From the IMG/VR virus record IMGVR_UViG_3300036851_000252, positions 1 through 53,777 of that record: a stretch of DNA of 53,777 nucleotides; one strand, written 5' to 3'. The position numbers were made by a program, and so were the translations under genes. This DNA is from a virus. Lineage: Duplodnaviria > Caudoviricetes. The number at the start of each line of letters is the position of its first letter. The stretch's first letter is position 1. The notes under the pieces are model-generated. The model made no database searches. It was not told the DNA's origin and saw only the letters and a list, made by a program, of their open reading frames with translations. This document shows, piece by piece, positions 12,538 to 49,140 of this stretch.

Positions 12538-13731
12538 ATGTCTCCCTTTGCGCACAAACTTTTCAACGAACTCTCGGCTCTTGTTGCATCTGAAAACGAT
12601 GCATTCTACAAGCGCGACTACGAACGTGATGGTCGTCACTATCGCGTATTTGCGTACCGTCTAGCTTCGTACACTGAATTCTTGTTGCCATCAGCAATCG
12701 AATGTCGTGGTACGATGTTCGAGATCACCGATCCTGCTTATGAACCAGTCGGAATGAAGCGTCTGGTCTCTCTTCCAATGGAGAAGTTCTGGAATCTTCA
12801 CGAGAATCCAGCAACGATGAACTTGGATCTATCAACGATCATTTCTGTTGAAACGAAAGCTGACGGTTCGTTGATTTCAACGTACTTGCATATCAATTCG
12901 ATCAATGGCAACAACGACGCACCTCTTGGTGTGAAGTCGAAGACTTCGATCGATTCGGATCAGGTGCATGCTGTTTATGCATTCTTGAAGCTTCCAGAGA
13001 ACGCCAAGTTTGCTCAGGAACTTCATCGTCTTGCAGAGCGTAACTACACGGTGAACATGGAGTGGTGTGCTCCTGAGAATCGTATCGTTCTTGCATATCA
13101 GGAATCTTCGTTGACGGTGCTCAATATTCGTGACAATCTCACGGGTTTGTACATTCCGAAGCAAAGTGAAGAGCTGTTAGAATTCAACGAAGTCAAAAAT
13201 CGTTGGATCGAGTCCATTCCTTTTGAAAATCCTGTGCAGTTCATCAAGTCGATCAATCAAATGACTGATGTGGAAGGCTTTGTGGCGCTTCTGTCATCTG
13301 GTCAGCGTGTGAAGATCAAGACGGACTGGTACGCAGCTCTTCACAAGACGAAGGATTCTGTGAATTCAGATCGTCGTCTATACGAAGTGGTGCTTGCTGA
13401 GGGTGCGGATGATCTTCGTGCAATGTTCTTCAACGATCCATGGGTGCTCAATCGCATCACTTGGATGCAGGAGTACGTTGCCGAGAAGTACAACGCACTG
13501 TCCAAGCAGGTGGAGACGTTCTACGATGCAAACAAGGGCCTTGCTCGCAAGGACTTTGCAATTCTCGGTCAGAAGCTGCTCGACCGTCATGCATTCAAGC
13601 TTTGCATGGAGCGATATGTTGGCCGTGAAGTGTCTGTCAAAGATTACATGGCAGCAAAATGGAAAGAGTTCGGGATCAAGGATGATCCCGAGCCATCCAC
13701 CGACGATGTGCAGGTGGCTGTTAACGAGTGA
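12538..13731 (+). CDS. rnlA: T4 Rnl1-like RNA ligase 1
   Basis: ECRG, EKFWN, KADGSLI (motif I), NRIV, EGFV, KIKTDWY. Confidence 0.92.
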   Translation: MSPFAHKLFNELSALVASENDAFYKRDYERDGRHYRVFAYRLASYTEFLLPSAIECRGTMFEITDPAYEPVGMKRLVSLPMEKFWNLHENPATMNLDLSTIISVETKADGSLISTYLHINSINGNNDAPLGVKSKTSIDSDQVHAVYAFLKLPENAKFAQELHRLAERNYTVNMEWCAPENRIVLAYQESSLTVLNIRDNLTGLYIPKQSEELLEFNEVKNRWIESIPFENPVQFIKSINQMTDVEGFVALLSSGQRVKIKTDWYAALHKTKDSVNSDRRLYEVVLAEGADDLRAMFFNDPWVLNRITWMQEYVAEKYNALSKQVETFYDANKGLARKDFAILGQKLLDRHAFKLCMERYVGREVSVKDYMAAKWKEFGIKDDPEPSTDDVQVAVNE

Positions 13732-19181: not shown

Positions 19182-19316
19182 GGGATAACTTGTTGATTAG
19201 GCAGGTTGAAACCACAGGATCAATCGGTCCTATAAATAAGCGTTGTCAAACAGTGAATTGCTCTATATGATCCATCCACTGTCAATTACTTTTTAACTGA
19301 AAGGATTTAGATTCAA

Positions 19317-19448
19317 ATGTTCGCGATATCACATCAATCATGGTTACCTCAGCCGGGCTCATGCCTCGGAGGGTTAGGTGCCGTATCGATGTTTGAACGT
19401 GATCGCAGCTATAGAACCCAAAGCCTTTCAGGAGGTACCACTTTTTAA
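19317..19448 (+). CDS. Putative 43-aa attenuator leader peptide
   Basis: AAGGA upstream; MFAISHQSWLPQPGSCLGGLGAVSMFERDRSYRTQSLSGGTTF*; its 3' end contains one antiterminator arm. Confidence 0.6.
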   Translation: MFAISHQSWLPQPGSCLGGLGAVSMFERDRSYRTQSLSGGTTF

Positions 19449-19516
19449 GGTACCAGATCTCAAAAAGAGATAAATTCTGAAAGGCTCATCCGAAAGGACT
19501 GAGCCTTTTTCGTTTT
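19422..19516 (+). promoter_or_regulatory. Antiterminator/terminator switch (attenuator) ahead of the tRNA array
   Basis: AGCCTTTCAG (19422-31) pairs with CTGAAAGGCT (19477-86), which overlaps the terminator AAAGGCTCA-tccgaaaggac-TGAGCCTTT plus U-tract. Confidence 0.7.
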
Positions 19517-19746
19517 CTGAGGTGTTGATTTATCGCAAGTGGCTGCAAGCCTAGCCCGAAAATCAAACACGGAACTTGTACACGACGTAGCACTCTGTAC
19601 ACTCACCACGCCGGTATTCCGATAAGGAGCGGCTGAAACAACGCAGGGACCGCGTTGCATATCACATGCAACGTTATTGCGCCCCGCTCAAAAGCAATCA
19701 ATCGTGTTACTCCCGATTGTGAAAGATAGGAGTAGATTTTTACTAT

Positions 19747-19824
19747 GTGGTTCGTGATGGAATTGGTAGACATCCCTGACTGTGAATCAGGCACTTGCGG
19801 GTTCGAACCCCGTCGATCCACCCA
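19747..19824 (+). tRNA. tRNA-His(GTG)
   Basis: G-1, CCTGA-CTGTGAA-TCAGG, GTTCGAAC, CCA. Confidence 0.92.
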
Positions 19825-19917
19825 AATTTAAGTTTTGTGACCAACGATGTGAGCAAGTAATAATAGTTTCTGATGTTATGACGTATACGCTTTATACACA
19901 CAACTAGGAGATGATTT

Positions 19918-20271
19918 ATGAAAGCGTATATCGATGGATTTGCAAATGAGCAGGATGTATTGGAGCAATTCAATGCACCTGAAGAGTACAAGAAGGCGAA
20001 GATCTTATTCGCATGGTATAACTATGAGGACTACTCAGGTTCAGCATTCGTGCTGTTCAAACATGGACGTAAGTTATACGAGGCAAACGGATCCCACTGC
20101 TCTTGCAATGGATTAGAAGAGTGTTGGTCACCTGAGGAAACTTCGGTGGAAGCATTACTGCACCGTCTGGACAACGGAACAGGATATTGGTATGGAATGC
20201 CAGAAAAGGAATTACGTAAGGTACTCAAGTCCTTGTCTAAGCGAAAGCAGACGACAAAACTAAATCCCTAG
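19918..20271 (+). CDS. Conserved phage hypothetical protein
   Basis: AGGAG RBS; YEDYSG...GSHCSCNGLE. Confidence 0.8.
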   Translation: MKAYIDGFANEQDVLEQFNAPEEYKKAKILFAWYNYEDYSGSAFVLFKHGRKLYEANGSHCSCNGLEECWSPEETSVEALLHRLDNGTGYWYGMPEKELRKVLKSLSKRKQTTKLNP

Positions 20272-20327
20272 CCTGCTAGGGTCGCTTAGAGGATCTCTAT
20301 GGAAGGAGACTCCTCTAAGATGATTCT

Positions 20328-21423: not shown

Positions 21424-21563
21424 ATTCTGTTGCGTAGTGTAAAGATACTTCACATCAACTGCTTGCCGTGTGGTTCGAATCCCACTATCTCCACTAGACG
21501 GAGATATAGTTCAGAGGTAGAACAGCAGTCTCAAAAAGACTTTATGCGACTTTTTCTCAGAAT
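21424..21563 (+). ncRNA. Y-RNA-like element 2 (YrlA-like permuted tRNA domain)
   Basis: Scaffold; ACTGCT/AGCAGT stem, T arm GTTCGAATC, closed acceptor TATCTCC-actagac-GGAGATA, D arm GTTC-agaggta-GAAC. Confidence 0.82.
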
Positions 21564-21576
21564 GTTTTTAAGGTTT

Positions 21577-21710
21577 GATCTCGTTGCGTAGTTAAGAGGT
21601 ACTTCATTGGTTCAATTCCAATATTTCCCGCAGAGCACATTACTAAGTGTGCTGTATGGGAAATACGCCGACTGGTCGGCATATTCTTTTAACGACTTTA
21701 TCTCGAGACC
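21577..21710 (+). ncRNA. Y-RNA-like element 3 (permuted tRNA domain, extended acceptor hairpin)
   Basis: Scaffold; ATTGG-TTCAATT-CCAAT, ATTTCCC...GGGAAAT, GCCGA-ctgg-TCGGC. Confidence 0.8.
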
Positions 21711-23067: not shown

Positions 23068-23145
23068 GTCCACGTAGTTCAGATGGATTAGAATGCAACG
23101 CTACGAACGTTGAGGTCGGGGGTTCAAGTCCCTCCGTGGATGCCA
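23068..23145 (+). tRNA. tRNA-Arg(ACG)
   Basis: CAACG-CTACGAA-CGTTG, CCA. Confidence 0.93.
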
Positions 23146-23163
23146 AATAGTAAATACTGTAAT

Positions 23164-23649
23164 ATGAAGCTCATGGAATTAGCCAATAACAAAGAAATCA
23201 TTCTAGTCTCAGGCAACCTTTGCTCTGGTAAGGGTCATTATTGTTCAACTGCATACCCAGAGTATAGCCAGATCGGCGTTTCGTCGATCGTTAGAGCATT
23301 GGCTAAGATGAACACCCGCAGTGAGCTTTCTACAACGAAAGATTTTGATACACGAATTGCTCAAAGATTGATTCAATTCATCGAGAAAGATTCCTACAAC
23401 AAGATCATTGTTGATGGTATTCGTCAGCTTTCAATCATGCAAGCTCTGCAGAACCATTTTGGTGACCAAATTAAAGACATCATTTGGTTAGATGTTCCTG
23501 ATGATGTTGCCAAAGAACGTTTCGCCAATCGTGCAGCAGCAAAAGACGATCAAACGTACGACGATGCTCGTGCGGGTGATAGAAACTTGGGTATTGAAGA
23601 TGTTGAGAGCTACATTCGTGCTAATCATAAGGTAGTTCCCAACAGTTGA
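23164..23649 (+). CDS. P-loop NMP-kinase-like protein
   Basis: SGNLCSGKG, IIVDGIR, WLDVP...ERF; ATG 7 nt after TAAATA. Confidence 0.8.
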   Translation: MKLMELANNKEIILVSGNLCSGKGHYCSTAYPEYSQIGVSSIVRALAKMNTRSELSTTKDFDTRIAQRLIQFIEKDSYNKIIVDGIRQLSIMQALQNHFGDQIKDIIWLDVPDDVAKERFANRAAAKDDQTYDDARAGDRNLGIEDVESYIRANHKVVPNS

Positions 23650-26058: not shown

Positions 26059-26133
26059 GCAGGTATAATTCAGTGGTAGAATGTCTCGTTGCCAACGAGA
26101 ATGTCGCGAGTTCGAGCCTCGCTACCTGCTCCA
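26059..26133 (+). tRNA. tRNA-Gly(GCC)
   Basis: TCTCG-TTGCCAA-CGAGA, TCCA. Confidence 0.92.
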
Positions 26134-26148
26134 ATTGAGATATGTACA

Positions 26149-26652
26149 ATGAGCAACGTATACAGAGGAACTGGCTATATCCAGTATGATCCTCATCGTG
26201 GAAGCATGAAAAGCCGCACACAAGGATGGTGCATTGTCAATGTCGATCGCGAATTGACACGCTATTATCGTTGGTGGCTCGATAAGGAGATCTTGAATCC
26301 ACTTGGCCTTCCAAAGGGAGGTCTCGATCAACCAGCTTGGGATGCACACATCTCAATCGTTCGCGGTGAGAGATTATATCCTGACAAGGAACATCTATGG
26401 AAGAAGTATCAGGGTAAGAAGGTTGATTTCTGGTACGAGCACCCCTTTTGGTACGATATCGGCCGTGATAATAAGCAGCCTGGATATTTTTTTACAGTTG
26501 ACGTACAGTCAGCAGACTTAATGAATATTCGCCTCGAGTTGGGGTTGAAGGCTGATTGGAATTTCCACTTGACGTTCGGCAGAACGTATCAGTACGCAAA
26601 GGATCCTAACTACGGCGCGACTTGGATGCAAAAAGAGGCAATGATCACATGA
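26149..26652 (+). CDS. 2H phosphoesterase-family protein
   Basis: Two H-x-S/T motifs: AHISIV and FHLTFG. Confidence 0.7.
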   Translation: MSNVYRGTGYIQYDPHRGSMKSRTQGWCIVNVDRELTRYYRWWLDKEILNPLGLPKGGLDQPAWDAHISIVRGERLYPDKEHLWKKYQGKKVDFWYEHPFWYDIGRDNKQPGYFFTVDVQSADLMNIRLELGLKADWNFHLTFGRTYQYAKDPNYGATWMQKEAMIT

Positions 26653-29110: not shown

Positions 29111-29365
29111 ATGAAAAAGTTTAACGTAGTCCCTTCAACGACATTAGAACTTGAGTCTGTCACATGTGACCGTTGTAAACGCGTGGATACGGACATATAT
29201 GATATACAGGAATATTTTAACCTCAATCAAGATGTTGGATATGCTGGCATACTTGGTGATGGAAACAAAATTCGTTTAGATTTATGTCAATATTGCTTCA
29301 AAGAAATCTTTGAAGGAGTATACCGAATCGAAGGTAATTACATTTGGAGGAGTTCAAATGAGTGA
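29111..29365 (+). CDS. Zn-finger hypothetical protein
   Basis: CDRC...DLCQYC. Confidence 0.7.
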   Translation: MKKFNVVPSTTLELESVTCDRCKRVDTDIYDIQEYFNLNQDVGYAGILGDGNKIRLDLCQYCFKEIFEGVYRIEGNYIWRSSNE

Positions 29366-29777
29366 ACCAAAACAAGTTATCGTGATGCGCAAAGATCTGA
29401 ACATGCGTAAAGGCAAGATGGTTGCCCAAGGTGCACATGCTTCAATGAAAGTGTTGTTAGATCTAATGTATGAGATGAAGTCATCTGATATGTTAAACCA
29501 AGGGCCTGCTGTATCTCGAACATTTGCAACATTGCAAGATAGTCCGGTAAACCATTGGTTAACAGGTCGTTTCACCAAAATTTGTGTGTCTGTCGATAGT
29601 GAAGTACAATTACTAGAGATAGTTGGCAAAGCTAAAGATGCTGGCCTATTGCACGCATTGATTACCGATGCTGGTCTAACAGAATTCGATGGTGTACCAA
29701 CTAGAACGTGTGCTGCTATTGGTCCTGCTGATCCAGAAGACATCGATAAGATCACTGGTCATTTGAAATTATTGTAA
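29358..29777 (+). CDS. pth2: Peptidyl-tRNA hydrolase, PTH2 family
   Basis: KQVIVMRKDLNMRKGKMVAQGAHA, DAGLTE, IGP...IDKITGHLKLL. Confidence 0.95.
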   Translation: MSEPKQVIVMRKDLNMRKGKMVAQGAHASMKVLLDLMYEMKSSDMLNQGPAVSRTFATLQDSPVNHWLTGRFTKICVSVDSEVQLLEIVGKAKDAGLLHALITDAGLTEFDGVPTRTCAAIGPADPEDIDKITGHLKLL

Positions 29778-30638: not shown

Positions 30639-31085
30639 ATGACATTACTCGACACAATTAAGGCTGCACAGTTGCAGGCCCGTAAAGTTCGCAATCCAGT
30701 TGCAACAGCATTGCTCACAACTTTGATCGGCGAAGCAGTTAATGTCGGTAAAAGTAACGGCAATCGCGACACAACCGACAGTGAAGTGATGGCTGTCATC
30801 AAGAAGTTCATCGCAAACGCAACAGAGACGATGGCAGCCGTTAAGGACCTGCCTCAAGAAGTTACCAAAGCTATGACTGAAATTGCTATTCTGCAGTCAT
30901 TCCTTCCACAACAGTTGTCTGCTATGGATCTTGAAGCCGCAATTGATGCATCGATTGTACTCAACAGCGCGGTTTCAATCAAAGATATGGGCAAAGTCAT
31001 GAAGTCTCTGAAAGAGAAGTATGATGGTCAGTTCGATGGTGGCGCCGCTTCTGCAATCATCAAGAAGAAGCTTGGAGTTCAGTGA
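30639..31085 (+). CDS. GatB/YqeY-domain protein
   Basis: EIAILQSFLPQQLS, KDMGKVM, FDGG. Confidence 0.92.
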   Translation: MTLLDTIKAAQLQARKVRNPVATALLTTLIGEAVNVGKSNGNRDTTDSEVMAVIKKFIANATETMAAVKDLPQEVTKAMTEIAILQSFLPQQLSAMDLEAAIDASIVLNSAVSIKDMGKVMKSLKEKYDGQFDGGAASAIIKKKLGVQ

Positions 31086-31415: not shown

Positions 31416-31676
31416 ATGAAAATTGAAGAACTAAAAGCTATTAACAAGCTCGTCGAAGAACTTCGGGCATACCGACATGTCGGTGCATTAATGAAAGCAG
31501 GAACATTCATCACAATGTCATATTGGTTTGAACCAACTGGAAAAACAGTCAAGGAAGGCGGCGGTCAGACACACATAACATTGAATGCTGTTGATGCTGG
31601 TCAGATGAAGTTCATGTTTGAATCGCGTGTTGATGCTACGCTTGCAAAATTGAAGCAGTACGGAATTGAAGAATAG
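31416..31676 (+). CDS. Hypothetical protein
   Basis: Operon packing. Confidence 0.6.
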   Translation: MKIEELKAINKLVEELRAYRHVGALMKAGTFITMSYWFEPTGKTVKEGGGQTHITLNAVDAGQMKFMFESRVDATLAKLKQYGIEE

Positions 31677-32115
31677 TTGTAAGTTCTGTGATAGAACAAT
31701 TTTGAATAAGGGATCTCAGAAAGCTCACCAAATGAGCTGTAAGAAGAATCCTCGTAGAGTCAAACATTACCACAGTCCAGATAGTGGTGCACAGGAGGGA
31801 TGTGAGTCTTGGAGTAAAGGGAAGAAAGTAGGCACACATCCCAAATGGAAGAAGCTATTTCCGTTGGATAAGGTGTTAGTAGCGAACAGTACATATTCTC
31901 GGGTTTGTATTAGACGCAGAATCTTAGAAGAAAAACTGATTTCATACGAGTGTAAATTGTGTGGTCTGGGACCAAGTTGGCATGGAAAAACAATGCCGTT
32001 GATTTTGGATCATGAAAATGGTATAAATAACGACAATAGATTAGAGAATTTGAGATTTGTCTGTAGTAATTGTGATTCAACATTACCAACTTACAAGTCT
32101 CGAAATCGCAAATAG
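31666..32115 (+). CDS. HNH endonuclease (free-standing, next to a tRNA)
   Basis: CKLCG...LDHENGINNDNRLENLRFVCSNC. Confidence 0.88.
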   Translation: MKNSCKFCDRTILNKGSQKAHQMSCKKNPRRVKHYHSPDSGAQEGCESWSKGKKVGTHPKWKKLFPLDKVLVANSTYSRVCIRRRILEEKLISYECKLCGLGPSWHGKTMPLILDHENGINNDNRLENLRFVCSNCDSTLPTYKSRNRK

Positions 32116-32759: not shown

Positions 32760-33380
32760 ATGTTGGCATATCCATCCATCCCACGTTGGCAAGAAGGTCG
32801 AGGTTTCGGCAAGCCTTGCATTGCCTTCTACAAATACGACGGATCGAATATTCGATTTGAATGGTCACCAAAGCGTATGTGGCATAAGTTTGGTTCCAGA
32901 ACTCAATTGCTCGACCGCAGCCATCCAATTCTTGGAGAGTCAGTTGACCTCTTCTTGGATGAGTATCGTGACATGTCAAAGATCATTCCTGAAGTGGTGT
33001 GTGAATACTACAAACAGAAAGTAGAGCGCATCGTTGCGTTTGCTGAGTTTTGGGGAGCAAATAGTTTTGCTGGAACCCACGAACCAACAGATCCTAAACT
33101 TCTAACACTGTTCGATGTGTCAGTGTACAAGAAGGGATTTCTTCCCGCACGAACATTCATGAAGCTGTTTCCTAAGAAAGAATACAACTGGGCTGCCCGA
33201 GTTGTTTATGAAGGAAATATGAATCAACCTTTTATTGACGCTGTTCGTCATGGACAATATGAGCTCGATGAGGGTGTCATTTGTAAGGGTCTAGATTGGT
33301 CAGCAAAGATCAAGACCTTTGATTACTTGAATAGGTTGAAGAATAAATATGGAGACGAGTGGGAAAAGTATGGAGAGTGA
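32760..33380 (+). CDS. Small RNA-ligase-like nucleotidyltransferase
   Basis: KYDGSN (motif I), FAEFWG, LFDV, EGVICK, KIKT. Confidence 0.8.
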   Translation: MLAYPSIPRWQEGRGFGKPCIAFYKYDGSNIRFEWSPKRMWHKFGSRTQLLDRSHPILGESVDLFLDEYRDMSKIIPEVVCEYYKQKVERIVAFAEFWGANSFAGTHEPTDPKLLTLFDVSVYKKGFLPARTFMKLFPKKEYNWAARVVYEGNMNQPFIDAVRHGQYELDEGVICKGLDWSAKIKTFDYLNRLKNKYGDEWEKYGE

Positions 33381-39082: not shown

Positions 39083-39167
39083 GGCCTCGTGGGGGAATTG
39101 GTAGACCCGTTGGTCTAAGAAGCCAATGACGAAAGTCGTCTCGGTTCGAGTCCGAGCGAGGCCACCA
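39083..39167 (+). tRNA. tRNA-Leu(AAG)
   Basis: TTGGT-CTAAGAA-GCCAA, Leu-type D and V arms, ACCA. Confidence 0.88.
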
Positions 39168-39188
39168 AATTCTTGTTGGAAGGTTTAC

Positions 39189-39359
39189 ATGTACGTTTGT
39201 GTATGCTATCGTGTATCAGACGAAGTTCTCAAAGAACACATTGCAAAAGGGTTTACAAAAGAACAATTAGCTGAAAAGCTTCATTGTATGACCAATTGTG
39301 CTTCGTGTGAAGGAACTATCGAAAGCATGATTGAGGAATACAAAGATGGCAATGGTTGA
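39189..39359 (+). CDS. BFD-like [2Fe-2S] protein
   Basis: MYVCVC...NCASC. Confidence 0.8.
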   Translation: MYVCVCYRVSDEVLKEHIAKGFTKEQLAEKLHCMTNCASCEGTIESMIEEYKDGNG

Positions 39360-39564
39360 ACGAATTGTACGTAACGCAATCGTATGCGTACTATGTAAGG
39401 AAGAGATTGAAAGCGTCCATAGGCACGATTTCAAGTGGTGCAAGTGCGGTAAGGTTGCCGTTGATGGTGGTAAGGACTATCGTCGTCGTTGTGGTGAGAG
39501 TTTCAACTATATTGATATTTCTGACGTCTACGAAGAAAACGTCAGAATGTCGTGGGAGGTATGA
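39346..39564 (+). CDS. Conserved Zn-binding phage protein
   Basis: CVLC...HDFKWCKCGKVAVDGG. Confidence 0.8.
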   Translation: MAMVERIVRNAIVCVLCKEEIESVHRHDFKWCKCGKVAVDGGKDYRRRCGESFNYIDISDVYEENVRMSWEV

Positions 39565-42147: not shown

Positions 42148-43347
42148 ATGAAGAAAACATACATGAATATCAAAAGCAAGCTAATTGCAAAAATCAACAA
42201 CCTCTATCTTGCAATTAGAAATTACTTCGAACAGCGTTGGGTCAAGCGTCTCGTTCAAGAGCTAACATCAGACATTACAGACGATGCTGCTCGCAGAATT
42301 TACATACAGCTGCTGAACAATAACATCGAACAATTGAGAATTGATAGTTATGGTTCGACCACACATATCATTTCAAACCGTCGTGATCGAATTGCATTTT
42401 TTGCAAAGACCATCAAGAAGGCAATTGAAGTTACACTCCCAATAAGAGGGCTTGTTGGTATTCAACCAATGTCTGGTCCGGTCGGTCTTGTATATGCATT
42501 GCGCTATCGTGAAACAGATCCAACCAACGAATCACCTGTTAAGCACATGACATTGGATGTTATGAGTGAAGCAGTGGCTGCTGATACCCGTAATCTTCAA
42601 GCCTCATATACGATTGAGGCGATGCAAGACATGAAAACACTTCATGGCATTGATGTTGAAAAGGAACTATCAGACGCTCTTGGTATCGAATTCGGTATTG
42701 AAGCTCAAAATGAAATTCTCAAAGATGTAGTACAGTTGGCGGAGAAATCAGGAAATGTAGTTGAGTTGAAACCAAACAGAGTATTGTTTTTAGCTGAAGA
42801 TGCATTGCATATTGCACTTGCAAGAGTCGCAAATGAAATCGCTCGTAAGACACGACGCGGTACTGGCAATTTCATTGTAACAAGTCCTTTGGGTGTTACC
42901 ATACTGCAAACAACACGAGGTCCATGGCAATTCAGACCTGTGAAACAATCTGGCACCTATGTTGGTGGTGTAACCTATGTTGGTGACATTATTGGTGTCA
43001 CACTGGCAGCTGAGCAGGTAATATACAAGGTATATTCGTCACTTTCATCATTGTCCCTGTTTCCTGATAATGCAGGTGTTGATTTCTTAGTTGGATTCAA
43101 AGGTAACAACGGTGAAGTTGATTCTGGTTACTTTTGGGCACCATACATCACTGCAATGACGCGTGGTGTTATGGTAAATCCTAATACATTCCAACCACAG
43201 GTTGGTTTCTACACAAGATATGGTAAAGTATTCACAAAGCCTACTGAAGACCCTGCTTCAAAGGTTTCAGCAAACTATTATGGATTAGTTAAAGTAATTT
43301 CAACCGAATCATCGCAGGCTGAAGAGACTACGGTCAACCCAGCTTGA
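42148..43347 (+). CDS. T4 gp23/gp24-like capsid protein paralog
   Basis: GIQPMSGPVGLVYALR, YTIEAMQD, IARKTRRGTGNF, YFWAPY, TFQPQVGFYTRYG. Confidence 0.88.
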   Translation: MKKTYMNIKSKLIAKINNLYLAIRNYFEQRWVKRLVQELTSDITDDAARRIYIQLLNNNIEQLRIDSYGSTTHIISNRRDRIAFFAKTIKKAIEVTLPIRGLVGIQPMSGPVGLVYALRYRETDPTNESPVKHMTLDVMSEAVAADTRNLQASYTIEAMQDMKTLHGIDVEKELSDALGIEFGIEAQNEILKDVVQLAEKSGNVVELKPNRVLFLAEDALHIALARVANEIARKTRRGTGNFIVTSPLGVTILQTTRGPWQFRPVKQSGTYVGGVTYVGDIIGVTLAAEQVIYKVYSSLSSLSLFPDNAGVDFLVGFKGNNGEVDSGYFWAPYITAMTRGVMVNPNTFQPQVGFYTRYGKVFTKPTEDPASKVSANYYGLVKVISTESSQAEETTVNPA

Positions 43348-44612: not shown

Positions 44613-45308
44613 ATGAAACTTAATATCGAAATCAGAGCCGCAGAAGGCGGAGACGATAGCAAGCTTTTCGTTGGCGACTTAGCAAGTGCGTACATCAGAA
44701 TGGCTAACAAAGCTGGCTGAAAGTGTACCGTTCTTGAGAAGAAGCCAAGCGAGAAAGGCTTCTTTCAAATAGTCCTTCAAATCGAAGGCAACAATCTACA
44801 ACAACTGCACCATGAAGCTGGTGGACACCGTATACAACGCGTGCCTCCAACAGAACGGCATGGACGTGTGCAAACAAGCACAGTTACTGTTGCTGTGATT
44901 GATCCAAACAAGAACGTAGAGCATCCAAGTTTGAAACGTGATGAAAACGATTTCAAACTTGAGTGGTACTCAGGTTCTGGTTCGGGTGGTCAACACAGAA
45001 ATAAACATCAGAACAGTTGTAGAATAACCCATATTCCAACAGGAGTAGTGAAAACCGCACAAACGAGAAATCGCCAGTCCAGTGAGAAAGAGGCAAGGCA
45101 ATCCTTGTTAACCCACTTGGATAGCATGTACCATCAAGCTAAGCGAACCACATTTGATTCAGACCGTAAGGGTCAAGTAGGGTCAGGCATGCGTGGAGAT
45201 AAGATCCGCACATACCGTTTCCAAGATGATCGTGTTGAAGACCATCAGACAGGAAGAGGAGCTTCGTGTAAGAAGGTAATGGGTGGCAATTTTGAGAATT
45301 TGTGGTAA
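44613..45308 (+). CDS. RF1-like peptide chain release factor lacking domain 1, in-frame TGA at 44718-44720 (readthrough or pseudogene)
   Basis: AAGGAG RBS; IEIRAAEGGDDS...AG*K...EAGGHRIQRVPPTE..GRVQTS, GSGGQHRNK, KIRTY, all in one frame. Confidence 0.85.
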
Positions 45309-47580: not shown

Positions 47581-49140
47581 ATGACAAAGTTGAATCAGAA
47601 GGGCGTATCGCGCCGCGCTACAGCACCAGTTGCAGTTAGCTACAATGGAAATCCACAGTTTGCACAGACAGAAGCTTTTGCTCTGTATGATCTTGTTGTG
47701 TCTCATTTCTTCGGAAAGGACACATTCTATGAATCAAACGATGAGCGCTTGAAGCGTCTTGAGACATTAGTTGCCGGCGTTGTTTCAACAGGCAACTTGC
47801 ACTTCATCGCAAACACAATTGTCAATGCTCGTCATGTGATGAACATGCGTTCTATGCCTCTTGTCCTTGCAGTACATTTTGCGAAGGCTCTTCGTGATCA
47901 GAACAAGCAGTACCCACACCTTCGTGAAGTCATTCGTGACGTAATCGGTCGTGCCGATCAGATCACTGATTTGTACGCTGTAGCTCTTGGTGTCTTCGGT
48001 TCGAAGAACAAGATTCCACTTGCTATCAAGCGTGGTGTTGCCGATGCGTTCAACAAGTTCAACGAGTACCAGTTCGCTAAGTACAACTCAAAGGCTGCTG
48101 TGAAGCTTAAGGACGTTCTTCGTATCGTCCACCCAAAGGGTTCAACTGAAGAGCAGGGTGCGTTGTTCAAGCGTATCATGACAGACACAATGGCTGTGGC
48201 TGACACGTGGGAAGCAAAGCTTTCACAGAACGGTCAGCTTGATGAGAAGGAAAAGAAGTCAAAGGCCGACCTTTGGGGCGATATGCTTGCAAAGGGCAAG
48301 GGGTTTGGTTACATGGCATTGCTTCGTAACCTTCGCAACATGTGGGAAGCTCCAATCACAGATGCAAACAAGGCAATCGTTTACGAGCGTCTTGCAGATC
48401 CAGCTGAAGTGAAGAAGAGCAAGCAGTTCCCATTCCGTTTCGTCAATGCAATGACAAACGTTGCTCAGTTTGGTGACTCGAAGTTGAAGCGTGCATTGTC
48501 TCGCGCCGTTGATGCCAGCCTTGGTAACTTGCCACAGCTTGGCAACGGTGTTTGGATCATCATCGACTGCTCAGGCAGCATGGGTGGTGAGCGTTTCGAG
48601 AACGCATCATTGTTTGCCGCAGCCCTTGCAAAGGCCAACGCTGATGCTAAGAACGTTGCAGTAACAATGTTCAGCGACAACGCTAAGCACGTTACGTTCA
48701 ATGGAGACAATCCTGTGTTGACGATTCAGGAAGGCTTCAAGAAGGAAATCTATGGTGGTGGCACCAACCTTCAGGCAGCTTTGGAATTGAAGAGCAAGCT
48801 TGGCTTTGAGCCAGACACTGTTATCGTGATCAGCGATATGCAGGTCAATGCATTGTCAGGCAGCCGCTATGGATCACGTGTAAACGTTGGTTCATTGTTC
48901 AAGTCAGGTACTGTCAAGGTTGCTATTAACGTAGCAGGCTATGCCAACACACCACTTACCGATCTTGATGGCTGGTATCAGTTGACGGGTTGGTCGGATC
49001 GTATCTTTGACTTCATCCCAGCAATGCGTGAGAAGCAGAGTGTCGTTCAGACATTGTCAACCCGTTATGAGGGTATCCCTAAGAGGGTAAAGACGGTTGA
49101 GGTCGAGGAAGTCGACGAAGTTGAAAAGGAAGCTGAATAA
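47581..49140 (+). CDS. rsr: Ro60/Rsr TROVE-domain RNA-binding protein with vWA domain
   Basis: DTFYE, KLKDVLRIVHPK, TWE, GYMALLRNLRN, SKQFPFRF, DCSGSM, GGTN, ISDMQ. Confidence 0.93.
   Translation: MTKLNQKGVSRRATAPVAVSYNGNPQFAQTEAFALYDLVVSHFFGKDTFYESNDERLKRLETLVAGVVSTGNLHFIANTIVNARHVMNMRSMPLVLAVHFAKALRDQNKQYPHLREVIRDVIGRADQITDLYAVALGVFGSKNKIPLAIKRGVADAFNKFNEYQFAKYNSKAAVKLKDVLRIVHPKGSTEEQGALFKRIMTDTMAVADTWEAKLSQNGQLDEKEKKSKADLWGDMLAKGKGFGYMALLRNLRNMWEAPITDANKAIVYERLADPAEVKKSKQFPFRFVNAMTNVAQFGDSKLKRALSRAVDASLGNLPQLGNGVWIIIDCSGSMGGERFENASLFAAALAKANADAKNVAVTMFSDNAKHVTFNGDNPVLTIQEGFKKEIYGGGTNLQAALELKSKLGFEPDTVIVISDMQVNALSGSRYGSRVNVGSLFKSGTVKVAINVAGYANTPLTDLDGWYQLTGWSDRIFDFIPAMREKQSVVQTLSTRYEGIPKRVKTVEVEEVDEVEKEAE

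Follow-up and report, generated by a model that had tools for sequence, protein, structure and literature searches.

In the classical attenuators of the trp, his and pheA/pheL type, a leader peptide controls amino-acid biosynthetic operons, and transcription terminates if the leader is translated fast or is not translated at all. Synthetase genes can also be controlled by a leader, as in the case of pheST. A His-leader is described as controlling the synthetase genes hisS/hisZ in bacilli (PMC2965389); for pheL, see PMC3082878. Here we describe an element that, on balance, we take to be a ribosome-mediated (leader-peptide) transcription attenuator, predicted to gate the entry of RNA polymerase into a phage tRNA array. 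It is located at 19297–19517 of the IMG/VR record IMGVR_UViG_3300036851_000252, a stretch of 53,777 bp that was analyzed in full (hereafter the window) and represents, by estimate, about 17% of the genome of a T4-related jumbo phage. This interpretation is the best supported one, chiefly on account of a second, distant phage in which equivalent places carry the same design.

The systems closest in behavior, by analogy, are leaders that report a general slowdown of translation, namely bmrB-bmrCD, toiL and ermC. bmrB-bmrCD of Bacillus subtilis is reported to possess a longer leader open reading frame (ORF), three alternative stem-loops and an intrinsic terminator; read-through needs translation of the leader and responds to a general slowdown of protein synthesis, and rare codons affect the decision (PMC4191407). 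The toiL upstream ORF of Escherichia coli topAI-yjhQ is presented as 'multipurpose' (PMC12121999), and the ermC leader is treated likewise (PMC2965389): lacking amino-acid specificity, both report translation stress through ribosome stalling at various positions and RNA refolding.

The window element shares with trp, his and pheL a short ORF led by a Shine-Dalgarno (SD) sequence, the helices 1:2, 2:3 and 3:4, an intrinsic terminator ahead of the genes to be regulated and, by prediction, termination under fast translation of the leader as well as under none. Unlike them, it would regulate tRNAs rather than enzymes, is found in a phage, has no run of a single codon, has the SD region and not a part of the ORF as its segment 1, and has a long leader of 43 codons. 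With the hisS/hisZ and pheST leaders or the T-box it would have in common that the translation apparatus is regulated through a leader sensing the supply of charged tRNA; in contrast to the window leader, those systems target synthetases and use runs of cognate codons or a T-box. For a regulated translation apparatus, the closest known precedent, by analogy, is the control of synthetase genes by a leader or a T-box. bmrB-bmrCD resembles the window leader in its longer leader ORF, three alternative helices and intrinsic terminator, and differs in controlling a bacterial drug exporter under an antibiotic trigger, the predicted target here being a phage tRNA array; toiL relies on occlusion of a ribosome-binding site and on Rho-dependent termination, and ermC on translation, with no intrinsic terminator before RNA genes in either. 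The openly searchable full-text literature yielded no account of an attenuator placed before phage tRNA genes, nor of how the expression of such arrays is controlled. The kind of mechanism is known; what appears to be new is that tRNA genes are its target and jumbo phages its setting.

The following features make up the leader and its surroundings, in order along the window.

19243–19271, + strand: sigma-70-like match TTGTCA-17-TATGAT (10/12); a transcript start would lie near 19278
19297–19307, + strand: segment 1, CTGAAAGGATT, with the SD sequence AAGGA (19301–19305) 11 nt upstream of the ATG; forms the anti-antiterminator with segment 2
19317–19448, + strand: leader ORF1, 43 sense codons and TAA, MFAISHQSWLPQPGSCLGGLGAVSMFERDRSYRTQSLSGGTTF
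19378–19473, + strand: alternative ORF2, 31 codons in another frame, GTG start, GGAGG 5 nt upstream, ending 3 nt before segment 3
19422–19431, + strand: segment 2, AGCCTTTCAG, codons 36–39 of ORF1; partner of segment 1 or segment 3
19434–19471, + strand: two small hairpins, GGTACC-9-GGTACC (19434–19454) and ATCTC-5-GAGAT (19457–19471), within the loop of the 2:3 helix
19477–19486, + strand: segment 3, CTGAAAGGCT; pairs with segment 2 (antiterminator) or, through 19480–19488, with segment 4 (terminator)
19480–19517, + strand: intrinsic terminator, hairpin 19480–19508 with a GAAA loop (dG −16.4), followed by the T-tract TTCGTTTT
19518–19747, + strand: spacer of 230 nt between the terminator and the first tRNA gene
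19748–19824, + strand: tRNA-His (GTG), the first of 31 tRNA genes and the first gene at which read-through would arrive

Most of this anatomy had been noticed in an earlier, sequence-only reading of the window. The ORF at 19317–19448 indeed has 43 codons, 18 amino acids and 32 different codons, including ATA, AGA, TTA and GGC/GGA/GGG/GGT; segment 2 (19422–19431) is, as claimed, the exact reverse complement of segment 3 (19477–19486), which gives a perfect 10-nt complement. The hairpin at 19480–19508 with its T-tract lies where a terminator sharing its 5′ arm with the antiterminator had been placed, the two helices being mutually exclusive, and both of the proposed small hairpins are present in the minimum-free-energy (MFE) fold, the stop codon of ORF1 being in the loop of the first. 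A third copy of the motif, CTGAAAGGAT at 19297–19306, had been overlooked; it pairs with 19424–19431. There are hence four RNA segments with a common AAAGGCU/AGCCUUU core that can form three mutually exclusive helices, 1:2, 2:3 and 3:4, so that the suggested trp/his-like anatomy is found as the complete classical four-segment set. At the level of sequence, a short SD-led ORF, with a long SD spacing, is followed by an intrinsic terminator between it and the tRNA genes, as expected of an attenuator.

The complementarity is not random. A perfect complement of at least 10 nt to the terminator arm was obtained in only 3 of 20,000 shuffles of the 200 nt upstream, and an upstream complement of even 6 nt is missing from all four of the other strong terminators in the window. 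An independent scan of terminator-like + strand hairpins in the window likewise singled out this one: it alone among nine has a significant upstream partner. The 2:3 duplex has a free energy of −16.7 kcal/mol (z −3.05 against shuffles), and the segment 2/3 pair is the longest among the 28 inverted repeats of the window. In the whole 53.8 kb, the 8-mer CTGAAAGG is found three times in either orientation, every time inside these 190 nt. The fold of the whole leader region reached z −4.63 and was equalled by none of 200 shuffles. The interior of ORF1 has ordinary structure (z −1.05; 27 of 200 shuffles fold as well), the surplus being due to the terminator, the small hairpins and the 1:2 helix, whose domain reached z −2.79.

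The MFE fold of the full leader combines 1:2 with 3:4 (terminator state) at −76.3 kcal/mol, the antiterminator state lies at −71.6, and forcing the 2:3 helix costs just 4.7 kcal/mol. Co-transcriptional folding had been named in the sequence-only reading as a check. In MFE snapshots of the growing transcript, the 1:2 helix appears once segment 2 is transcribed, gives way to 2:3 at 19486–19498, with segment 4 as yet unmade, and returns together with 3:4. The barrier from 1:2 to 2:3 was about 14 kcal/mol by findpath, a heuristic path search; on that path, an untranslated leader should therefore hold 1:2 and terminate.

To represent the ribosome, 30 nt around the P-site were kept unpaired and this footprint was stepped along ORF1. 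The probability of the terminator was 1.0 without a ribosome and 1.0 with the footprint on codons 34–43; with the footprint on codons 1–4, masking segment 1, the antiterminator reached a probability of 0.94–1.0. Any stall before about codon 31 would lead to read-through, as had been proposed from the sequence, if pairing across the ribosome is assumed to be sterically excluded. ORF2, if translated, would act with a logic opposite to that of ORF1: a ribosome at its stop codon would cover the 5′ arm of the terminator and so favor read-through.

The mechanism that we favor may be outlined as follows. Transcripts would arrive from the promoter-like site at 19243–19271 or from upstream genes. With no ribosome, segment 2 would pair with segment 1, hiding the SD sequence, the 3:4 terminator would form, and transcription would stop at about 19517. 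A ribosome that has loaded and lags in the 43-codon ORF would occupy segment 1 and leave segment 2 free to capture segment 3 as it emerges; once 2:3 has formed there would be no terminator, and the polymerase would continue into tRNA-His and beyond. A ribosome keeping pace would reach the end of the ORF and sit on or within the 2:3 element, so that the terminator would form. By computation, the analysis shows the sequence elements, their non-random complementarity, the alternative folds and the recurrence of the design before tRNA clusters in a second phage; translation of the ORF, activity of the terminator and a response of read-through to the speed of translation are inferred. The output of phage tRNAs would then rise when translation is slow, e.g., when charged tRNA is short.

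Conservation upstream of tRNA arrays in related phages had also been put forward as a check; the architecture recurs in a second phage, as described below, and for the sequence of the window leader itself no alignable relative was found beyond near-identical reads. Searches of GenBank phages with blastn returned matches to tRNA-His only, and no relative of the leader was found in IMG/VR through four neighboring proteins, two leader DNA patterns and one tRNA-His pattern. A 235-aa protein had no match in JGI metagenomes. Two freshwater DNA runs, probably a single data set, contain 151-nt pieces over 19326–19476 and 19512–19649 with three differences; the substitutions at 19442 and 19443, both T>A, are in the loop of the first small hairpin and are uninformative. 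The 117-aa protein encoded just after tRNA-His matched only L002 and L003 in JGI metagenomes (50–56% identity), and these led to the IMG/VR record here called G001.

G001 (378,912 bp, 94% complete, 56 tRNAs) is a distant relative of the window phage, the Gp23-like, TROVE and 117-aa proteins being 40, 30 and 47% identical, respectively. It contains three modules that, judged by their sequence, have the same design as the window leader. No relative of the head region of G001 was found in GenBank.

39140–39377, + strand: G001 head module; TTGACA-17-TATAGT, AAGGA 6 nt before ATG, 35-codon ORF, 14-bp terminator
302144–302006, − strand: G001 second-array module; GGAG, GTG start, 27-codon ORF, terminator ending 13 nt before tRNA-Lys
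58296–58438, + strand: G001 internal module (equivalent to L002 708–839); 25/26-codon ORF and terminator, before the 111-aa homologue of the 117-aa protein and tRNA-Val

The promoter-like sequence of the head module occupies the same relative position as the match at 19243–19271, and the terminator lies 33 nt before tRNA-His, which is the first tRNA of the main array, as in the window. GCGCCCUU, in the 3′ part of the ORF, is complementary to AAGGGCGC in the terminator arm, with a perfect match over 8 nt that 196 of 20,000 shuffles reach, and UUAAGG of the SD region pairs with CCUUGA of segment 2. The module reached z −3.07 with 200 shuffles and −2.76 with 150. The second-array module precedes a dense cluster in the order Lys, Lys, Leu, Leu, Trp, Tyr, Met ×3, Arg, and its terminator ends so close to tRNA-Lys that there is no room for a promoter between them; a 14-bp antiterminator appears transiently in the folding snapshots, and the leader has many Leu, Lys and Trp codons. 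In the internal module, the end of the ORF pairs over 12–13 bp with the terminator arm, with a perfect core of 8 nt (230 of 20,000 shuffles). All three modules toggle in MFE snapshots like the window leader.

In all four modules an SD-led ORF extends from just after segment 1, or through it, to segment 2, and the stop codon overlaps segment 2 or starts about 15–19 nt beyond it. The four leader peptides are mutually dissimilar. The contigs L002 (655–1002) and L005 (2661–3005) are variants about 96% identical whose leader modules diverge: a 1-nt deletion puts the final codons of the leader out of register without closing the frame, and the upper stem of the terminator is swapped for compensating pairs. 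This deletion, together with the unrelated peptides, suggests that the act of translation matters and not the peptide. A 41-codon hydrophobic ORF located upstream in L002 is missing from L005.

The modules of G001 are associated with tRNA genes. On both strands we counted 166 terminator-like hairpins, of which 10 have an upstream complement at z ≤ −2.5. Among hairpins with dG ≤ −14, 4 of 37 were significant; three of these four lie within 700 nt upstream of a tRNA gene on the same strand, compared with 2 of the 33 others (Fisher p 0.005; p 0.0034 and 0.015 at cut-offs of −12 and −9). Furthermore, the G001 leaders are enriched in amino acids of the tRNAs that follow. We counted leader codons, start excluded, whose amino acid is that of a tRNA within 5 kb downstream, and compared the counts with stop-free windows of the same length from the same genome. 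Matches amounted to 21 of 34 codons for the head module (p 0.006), 13 of 25 for the internal one (p 0.10) and 14 of 26 for the second-array module (p 0.016). The combined p was 0.0008, with 0.0007–0.0014 at limits of 3–10 kb and 0.011 at 2 kb. Each G001 leader fits its own cluster better than the other two clusters of this genome, and the ORF frame matches at 52–62%, vs. 24–38% in the other two frames of the same nucleotides.

The sequence-only reading had gone further and seen in the breadth of codons in ORF1 a possible general sensor of tRNA damage. This part was not supported. Among 41 ATG-initiated ORFs of 40–46 codons in the window, 24% use at least 18 amino acids and 10% at least 32 codons; the diversity of ORF1 is thus ordinary, its codon usage is like that of spurious frames, and it has no Lys or Asn codons, a lack seen in 11 of 675 gene windows. 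The use of '18 of 20 amino acids' as a mark of design was rejected on these grounds, since about a quarter of the comparable ORFs equal or exceed it, and the refinement to a 'general tRNA-damage sensor' is unproven for the window leader, which may respond just to slow translation or a low supply of tRNA. The 31 tRNA genes of the array (all on the + strand, 19748–46431, tRNA-His first) span 16 amino acids and include none for Lys, Asn, Thr or Ala; ORF1 also contains three Thr and two Ala codons. The tRNAs of the window can read 36 of the 43 codons of ORF1, compared with 59% in phage genes; by this measure ORF1 ranks within the top 3.3% of ORFs (n = 209) and the top 1.7% of stop-free windows (n = 1,527). 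It should be noted that the comparisons of array readability and of leaders with tRNAs were made post hoc.

ORF1 is probably not a gene in the usual sense. Its peptide has no homologue among 5.8 billion clustered proteins in a word-based search, and phmmer over 1.84 billion representatives gave only two long proteins matched in several stretches, which were judged unrelated. We therefore rejected a conserved small protein gene, as there are no homologous peptides and the codon usage is not gene-like. These properties fit a leader peptide of unimportant sequence and an untranslated frame equally. ORF1 is preferred over ORF2 as the leader because the geometry of ORF2 differs from that of the G001 modules.

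A number of observations weigh against a ribosome-mediated attenuator. Some of them concern ORF1: with a codon-usage score of −0.12 it falls among spurious ORFs (mean −0.13, n = 63), a score this low is found in just 1 of 168 gene fragments, the 11 nt between its SD sequence and the ATG exceed the spacing in the phage genes compared, and ORF2, with the better SD sequence, overlaps it. Only 22 of 42 codons match amino acids of tRNAs within 5 kb downstream (p 0.29, i.e., no enrichment), and another frame of the window leader matches the nearby tRNAs equally well. Others concern the folds. The pairing of the SD region with segment 2 is in part expected, because terminator arms beginning with AAAGG look like an SD sequence. 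At equilibrium, a footprint in the middle of the ORF still permits 1:2, and hence termination, because the model allows 1:2 pairing across the ribosome; in the G001 head module, equilibrium folding favors the terminator under every footprint state, and a switch there would therefore have to be kinetic.

The remaining ones concern recurrence. Searches of GenBank phages, IMG/VR and JGI metagenomes gave no sequence that aligns with the window leader, the sole exception being sequencing reads of about 99% identity. In the Xanthomonas phages X1 and BUDD the array head carries a 39-codon ORF that evolves fast and a terminator whose stem shows compensatory changes; the antiterminator there is not significant (z −1.67 and −1.31) and the case is equivocal. 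None of four terminator-like hairpins in the array region of XacN1 has a partner. Seven significant hairpins of G001 lie away from tRNAs; they are mostly weak and several have their complement at least 110 nt upstream, so that they are probably noise, yet they show the false-positive rate of the test. Finally, the tRNA distance, the thresholds and the cluster limits were set after seeing the data.

The alternative that survives best is that the switch is real and the ORF incidental, the operator being a phage or host protein that binds RNA, a small RNA, a tRNA, a metabolite or just the speed of the polymerase. The three-helix design needs only a factor that masks segment 1 or segment 2, and the non-coding character of ORF1 by codon usage, its lack of homologues, its long SD spacing and the lack of a frame-specific fit to the nearby tRNAs would all agree with such an operator. 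We consider it unlikely, since an SD-led ORF spans to segment 2 in all four modules and the match of G001 leaders to downstream tRNAs is specific to the ORF frame. No Rfam family matches, T-box included, and leader sequences differ among the modules; this lack of conservation argues against a common ligand- or protein-binding fold.

It is likewise unlikely that the locus is an ordinary unit, that is, a small gene or a small RNA of about 240 nt with its own promoter and a constitutive terminator that also ends the upstream structural operon, the array being transcribed from an unrecognized downstream promoter and the pairing having no regulatory role. A promoter-like site and a strong terminator do flank the region, and its high degree of structure (z −4.63) would suit a structured small RNA as well. 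The 230 nt before tRNA-His could hold an unrecognized promoter, the sigma-70 scan being uninformative in this phage, and in L002/L005 a promoter-like site follows the terminator. Such a unit leaves unexplained an antiterminator complement far beyond chance and absent from other terminators, and its peptide shows neither conservation nor the features of a gene product. Two of the G001 terminators stop 33 and 13 nt short of the first tRNA, so that those tRNAs would hardly be made without read-through. Chance resemblance, i.e., a terminator whose upstream complement and open frame are fortuitous, is highly improbable: about three random 10-bp inverted repeats are expected per 54 kb, several perfect ones exist elsewhere in the window and the diversity of the ORF is ordinary, but so few shuffles reach the complement, all three copies of the 8-mer fall inside 190 nt and the design recurs before tRNA clusters in G001.

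Several candidate signals and RNA families around the leader were also considered. For sigma-70-like matches, this phage shows no enrichment relative to shuffles (12 vs. 8.9, 33 vs. 36.8 and 34 vs. 39.6), and no match of at least 9/12 occurs between the terminator and tRNA-His (19518–19747). Because such matches are no commoner than in shuffles, both the 'promoter' at 19243–19271 and the absence of one from the spacer are weak evidence. The spacer has no + strand ORF of at least 30 aa, no unusual structure (z −0.85) and no Rfam match. The motif TATAAATA at 19231–19238 (+ strand), where the sequence-only reading placed the start of the element, fits the T4 late-promoter consensus. We set it aside as a candidate late promoter: the window has only two copies, a number reached in 36 of 100 shuffles, and the other copy (32022) is inside a coding frame. 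Similar (T/C)ATAAATA motifs are found upstream of the G001 modules and of the X1 array head. Only tRNA motifs emerged when a repeated promoter motif was sought by k-mer counting. A T-box riboswitch was rejected, no covariance-model match being found in the leader at the gathering threshold or at E up to 10. No Rfam 15 family reaches its gathering threshold there, the best being BTnc231 (26.8 bits vs. 80.4).

The closest GenBank relatives of the window phage, at about 35% protein identity, are XacN1 and phages of Aeromonas and Xanthomonas. Apart from the tRNA genes, the main features of the window are as follows.

12538–13731: T4-type RNA ligase 1 (Rnl1)
29310–29777: Pth2
42148–43347: Gp23-like capsid protein
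44841–45308: RF-1-domain (ArfB-like) protein
47581–49140: TROVE/Ro60-like protein with a VWA domain

The tRNA array is interspersed with RNA-repair and translation-rescue genes. Besides Rnl1, Pth2 and the RF-1-domain protein at the positions listed, they include a P-loop kinase-like protein (23110–23649), a 2H phosphoesterase-like protein (26089–26652), YqeY (30639–31085) and a second RNA-ligase-like protein (32760–33380), the kinase, phosphoesterase and second ligase assignments being weak. A tRNA-like element with a 48-nt insertion (21460–21629) scores 30.8 bits against the Rfam tRNA family and overlaps a sub-threshold match to YrlA, a Y RNA-like family (24.7 bits vs. a threshold of 69). By sequence similarity, the YrlA-like element and the TROVE/Ro60-like protein suggest a phage Ro–Y RNA pair.

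The 117-aa gene just after tRNA-His (19918–20271) has homologues in L002 (1000–1335) and G001 (58585–58923). This conserved, Cys-containing family of about 115 aa corresponds to PHROG 8792 and also to PHROG 21421, which bears the label 'integrase', and has no Pfam hit; its members lie inside the tRNA arrays of the window phage and G001 and also occur in phiKZ-like, Bacillus and other phages. Two soil RNA libraries yielded contigs over 19754–20293 only, with tRNA-like pieces and close relatives of the 117-aa gene, which shows presence in the libraries and leaves transcription unproven. The ORF at 31666–32115, whose translation was read by eye, has an HNH-endonuclease-like C-terminus and ends 5 nt before tRNA-Ser (32121). 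In G001, a 217-aa ORF between the first two tRNA-His genes looks by eye like a GIY-YIG homing endonuclease, and ARAGORN predicts at 268404–268479 (− strand) a tRNA with the amber-reading anticodon CTA, labeled Pyl. The XacN1 record annotates two 'tRNA-Sup' genes in its array.

Phage tRNA arrays have been discussed as codon compensation and as a counter to tRNA-cleaving defenses (PMC10264068, PMC11464382). The attenuator proposed above suggests that such phages make more tRNA when translation is slow. A more far-reaching proposal, which we put forward tentatively and hold to be possible rather than probable, is that jumbo phages gate each tRNA cluster by a leader attenuator of its own, whose codons sample the downstream tRNAs, so that tRNA synthesis would be feedback-controlled by decoding capacity. 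If this is true, tRNA synthesis would go up when host tRNAs are depleted or cleaved, e.g., by anticodon nucleases, and would be throttled when supply is adequate; the 43-codon, 18-amino-acid leader of the window would be a broad-spectrum version heading a 31-tRNA array. Already an attenuator that reads the speed of translation and responds with tRNA would give a textbook mechanism a new regulated target, would explain the carriage of dozens of tRNA genes without constant cost, and would supply compact natural sensors of particular tRNA pools. It would also tie tRNA-targeting immunity to the expression of phage genes in a direct and testable way.

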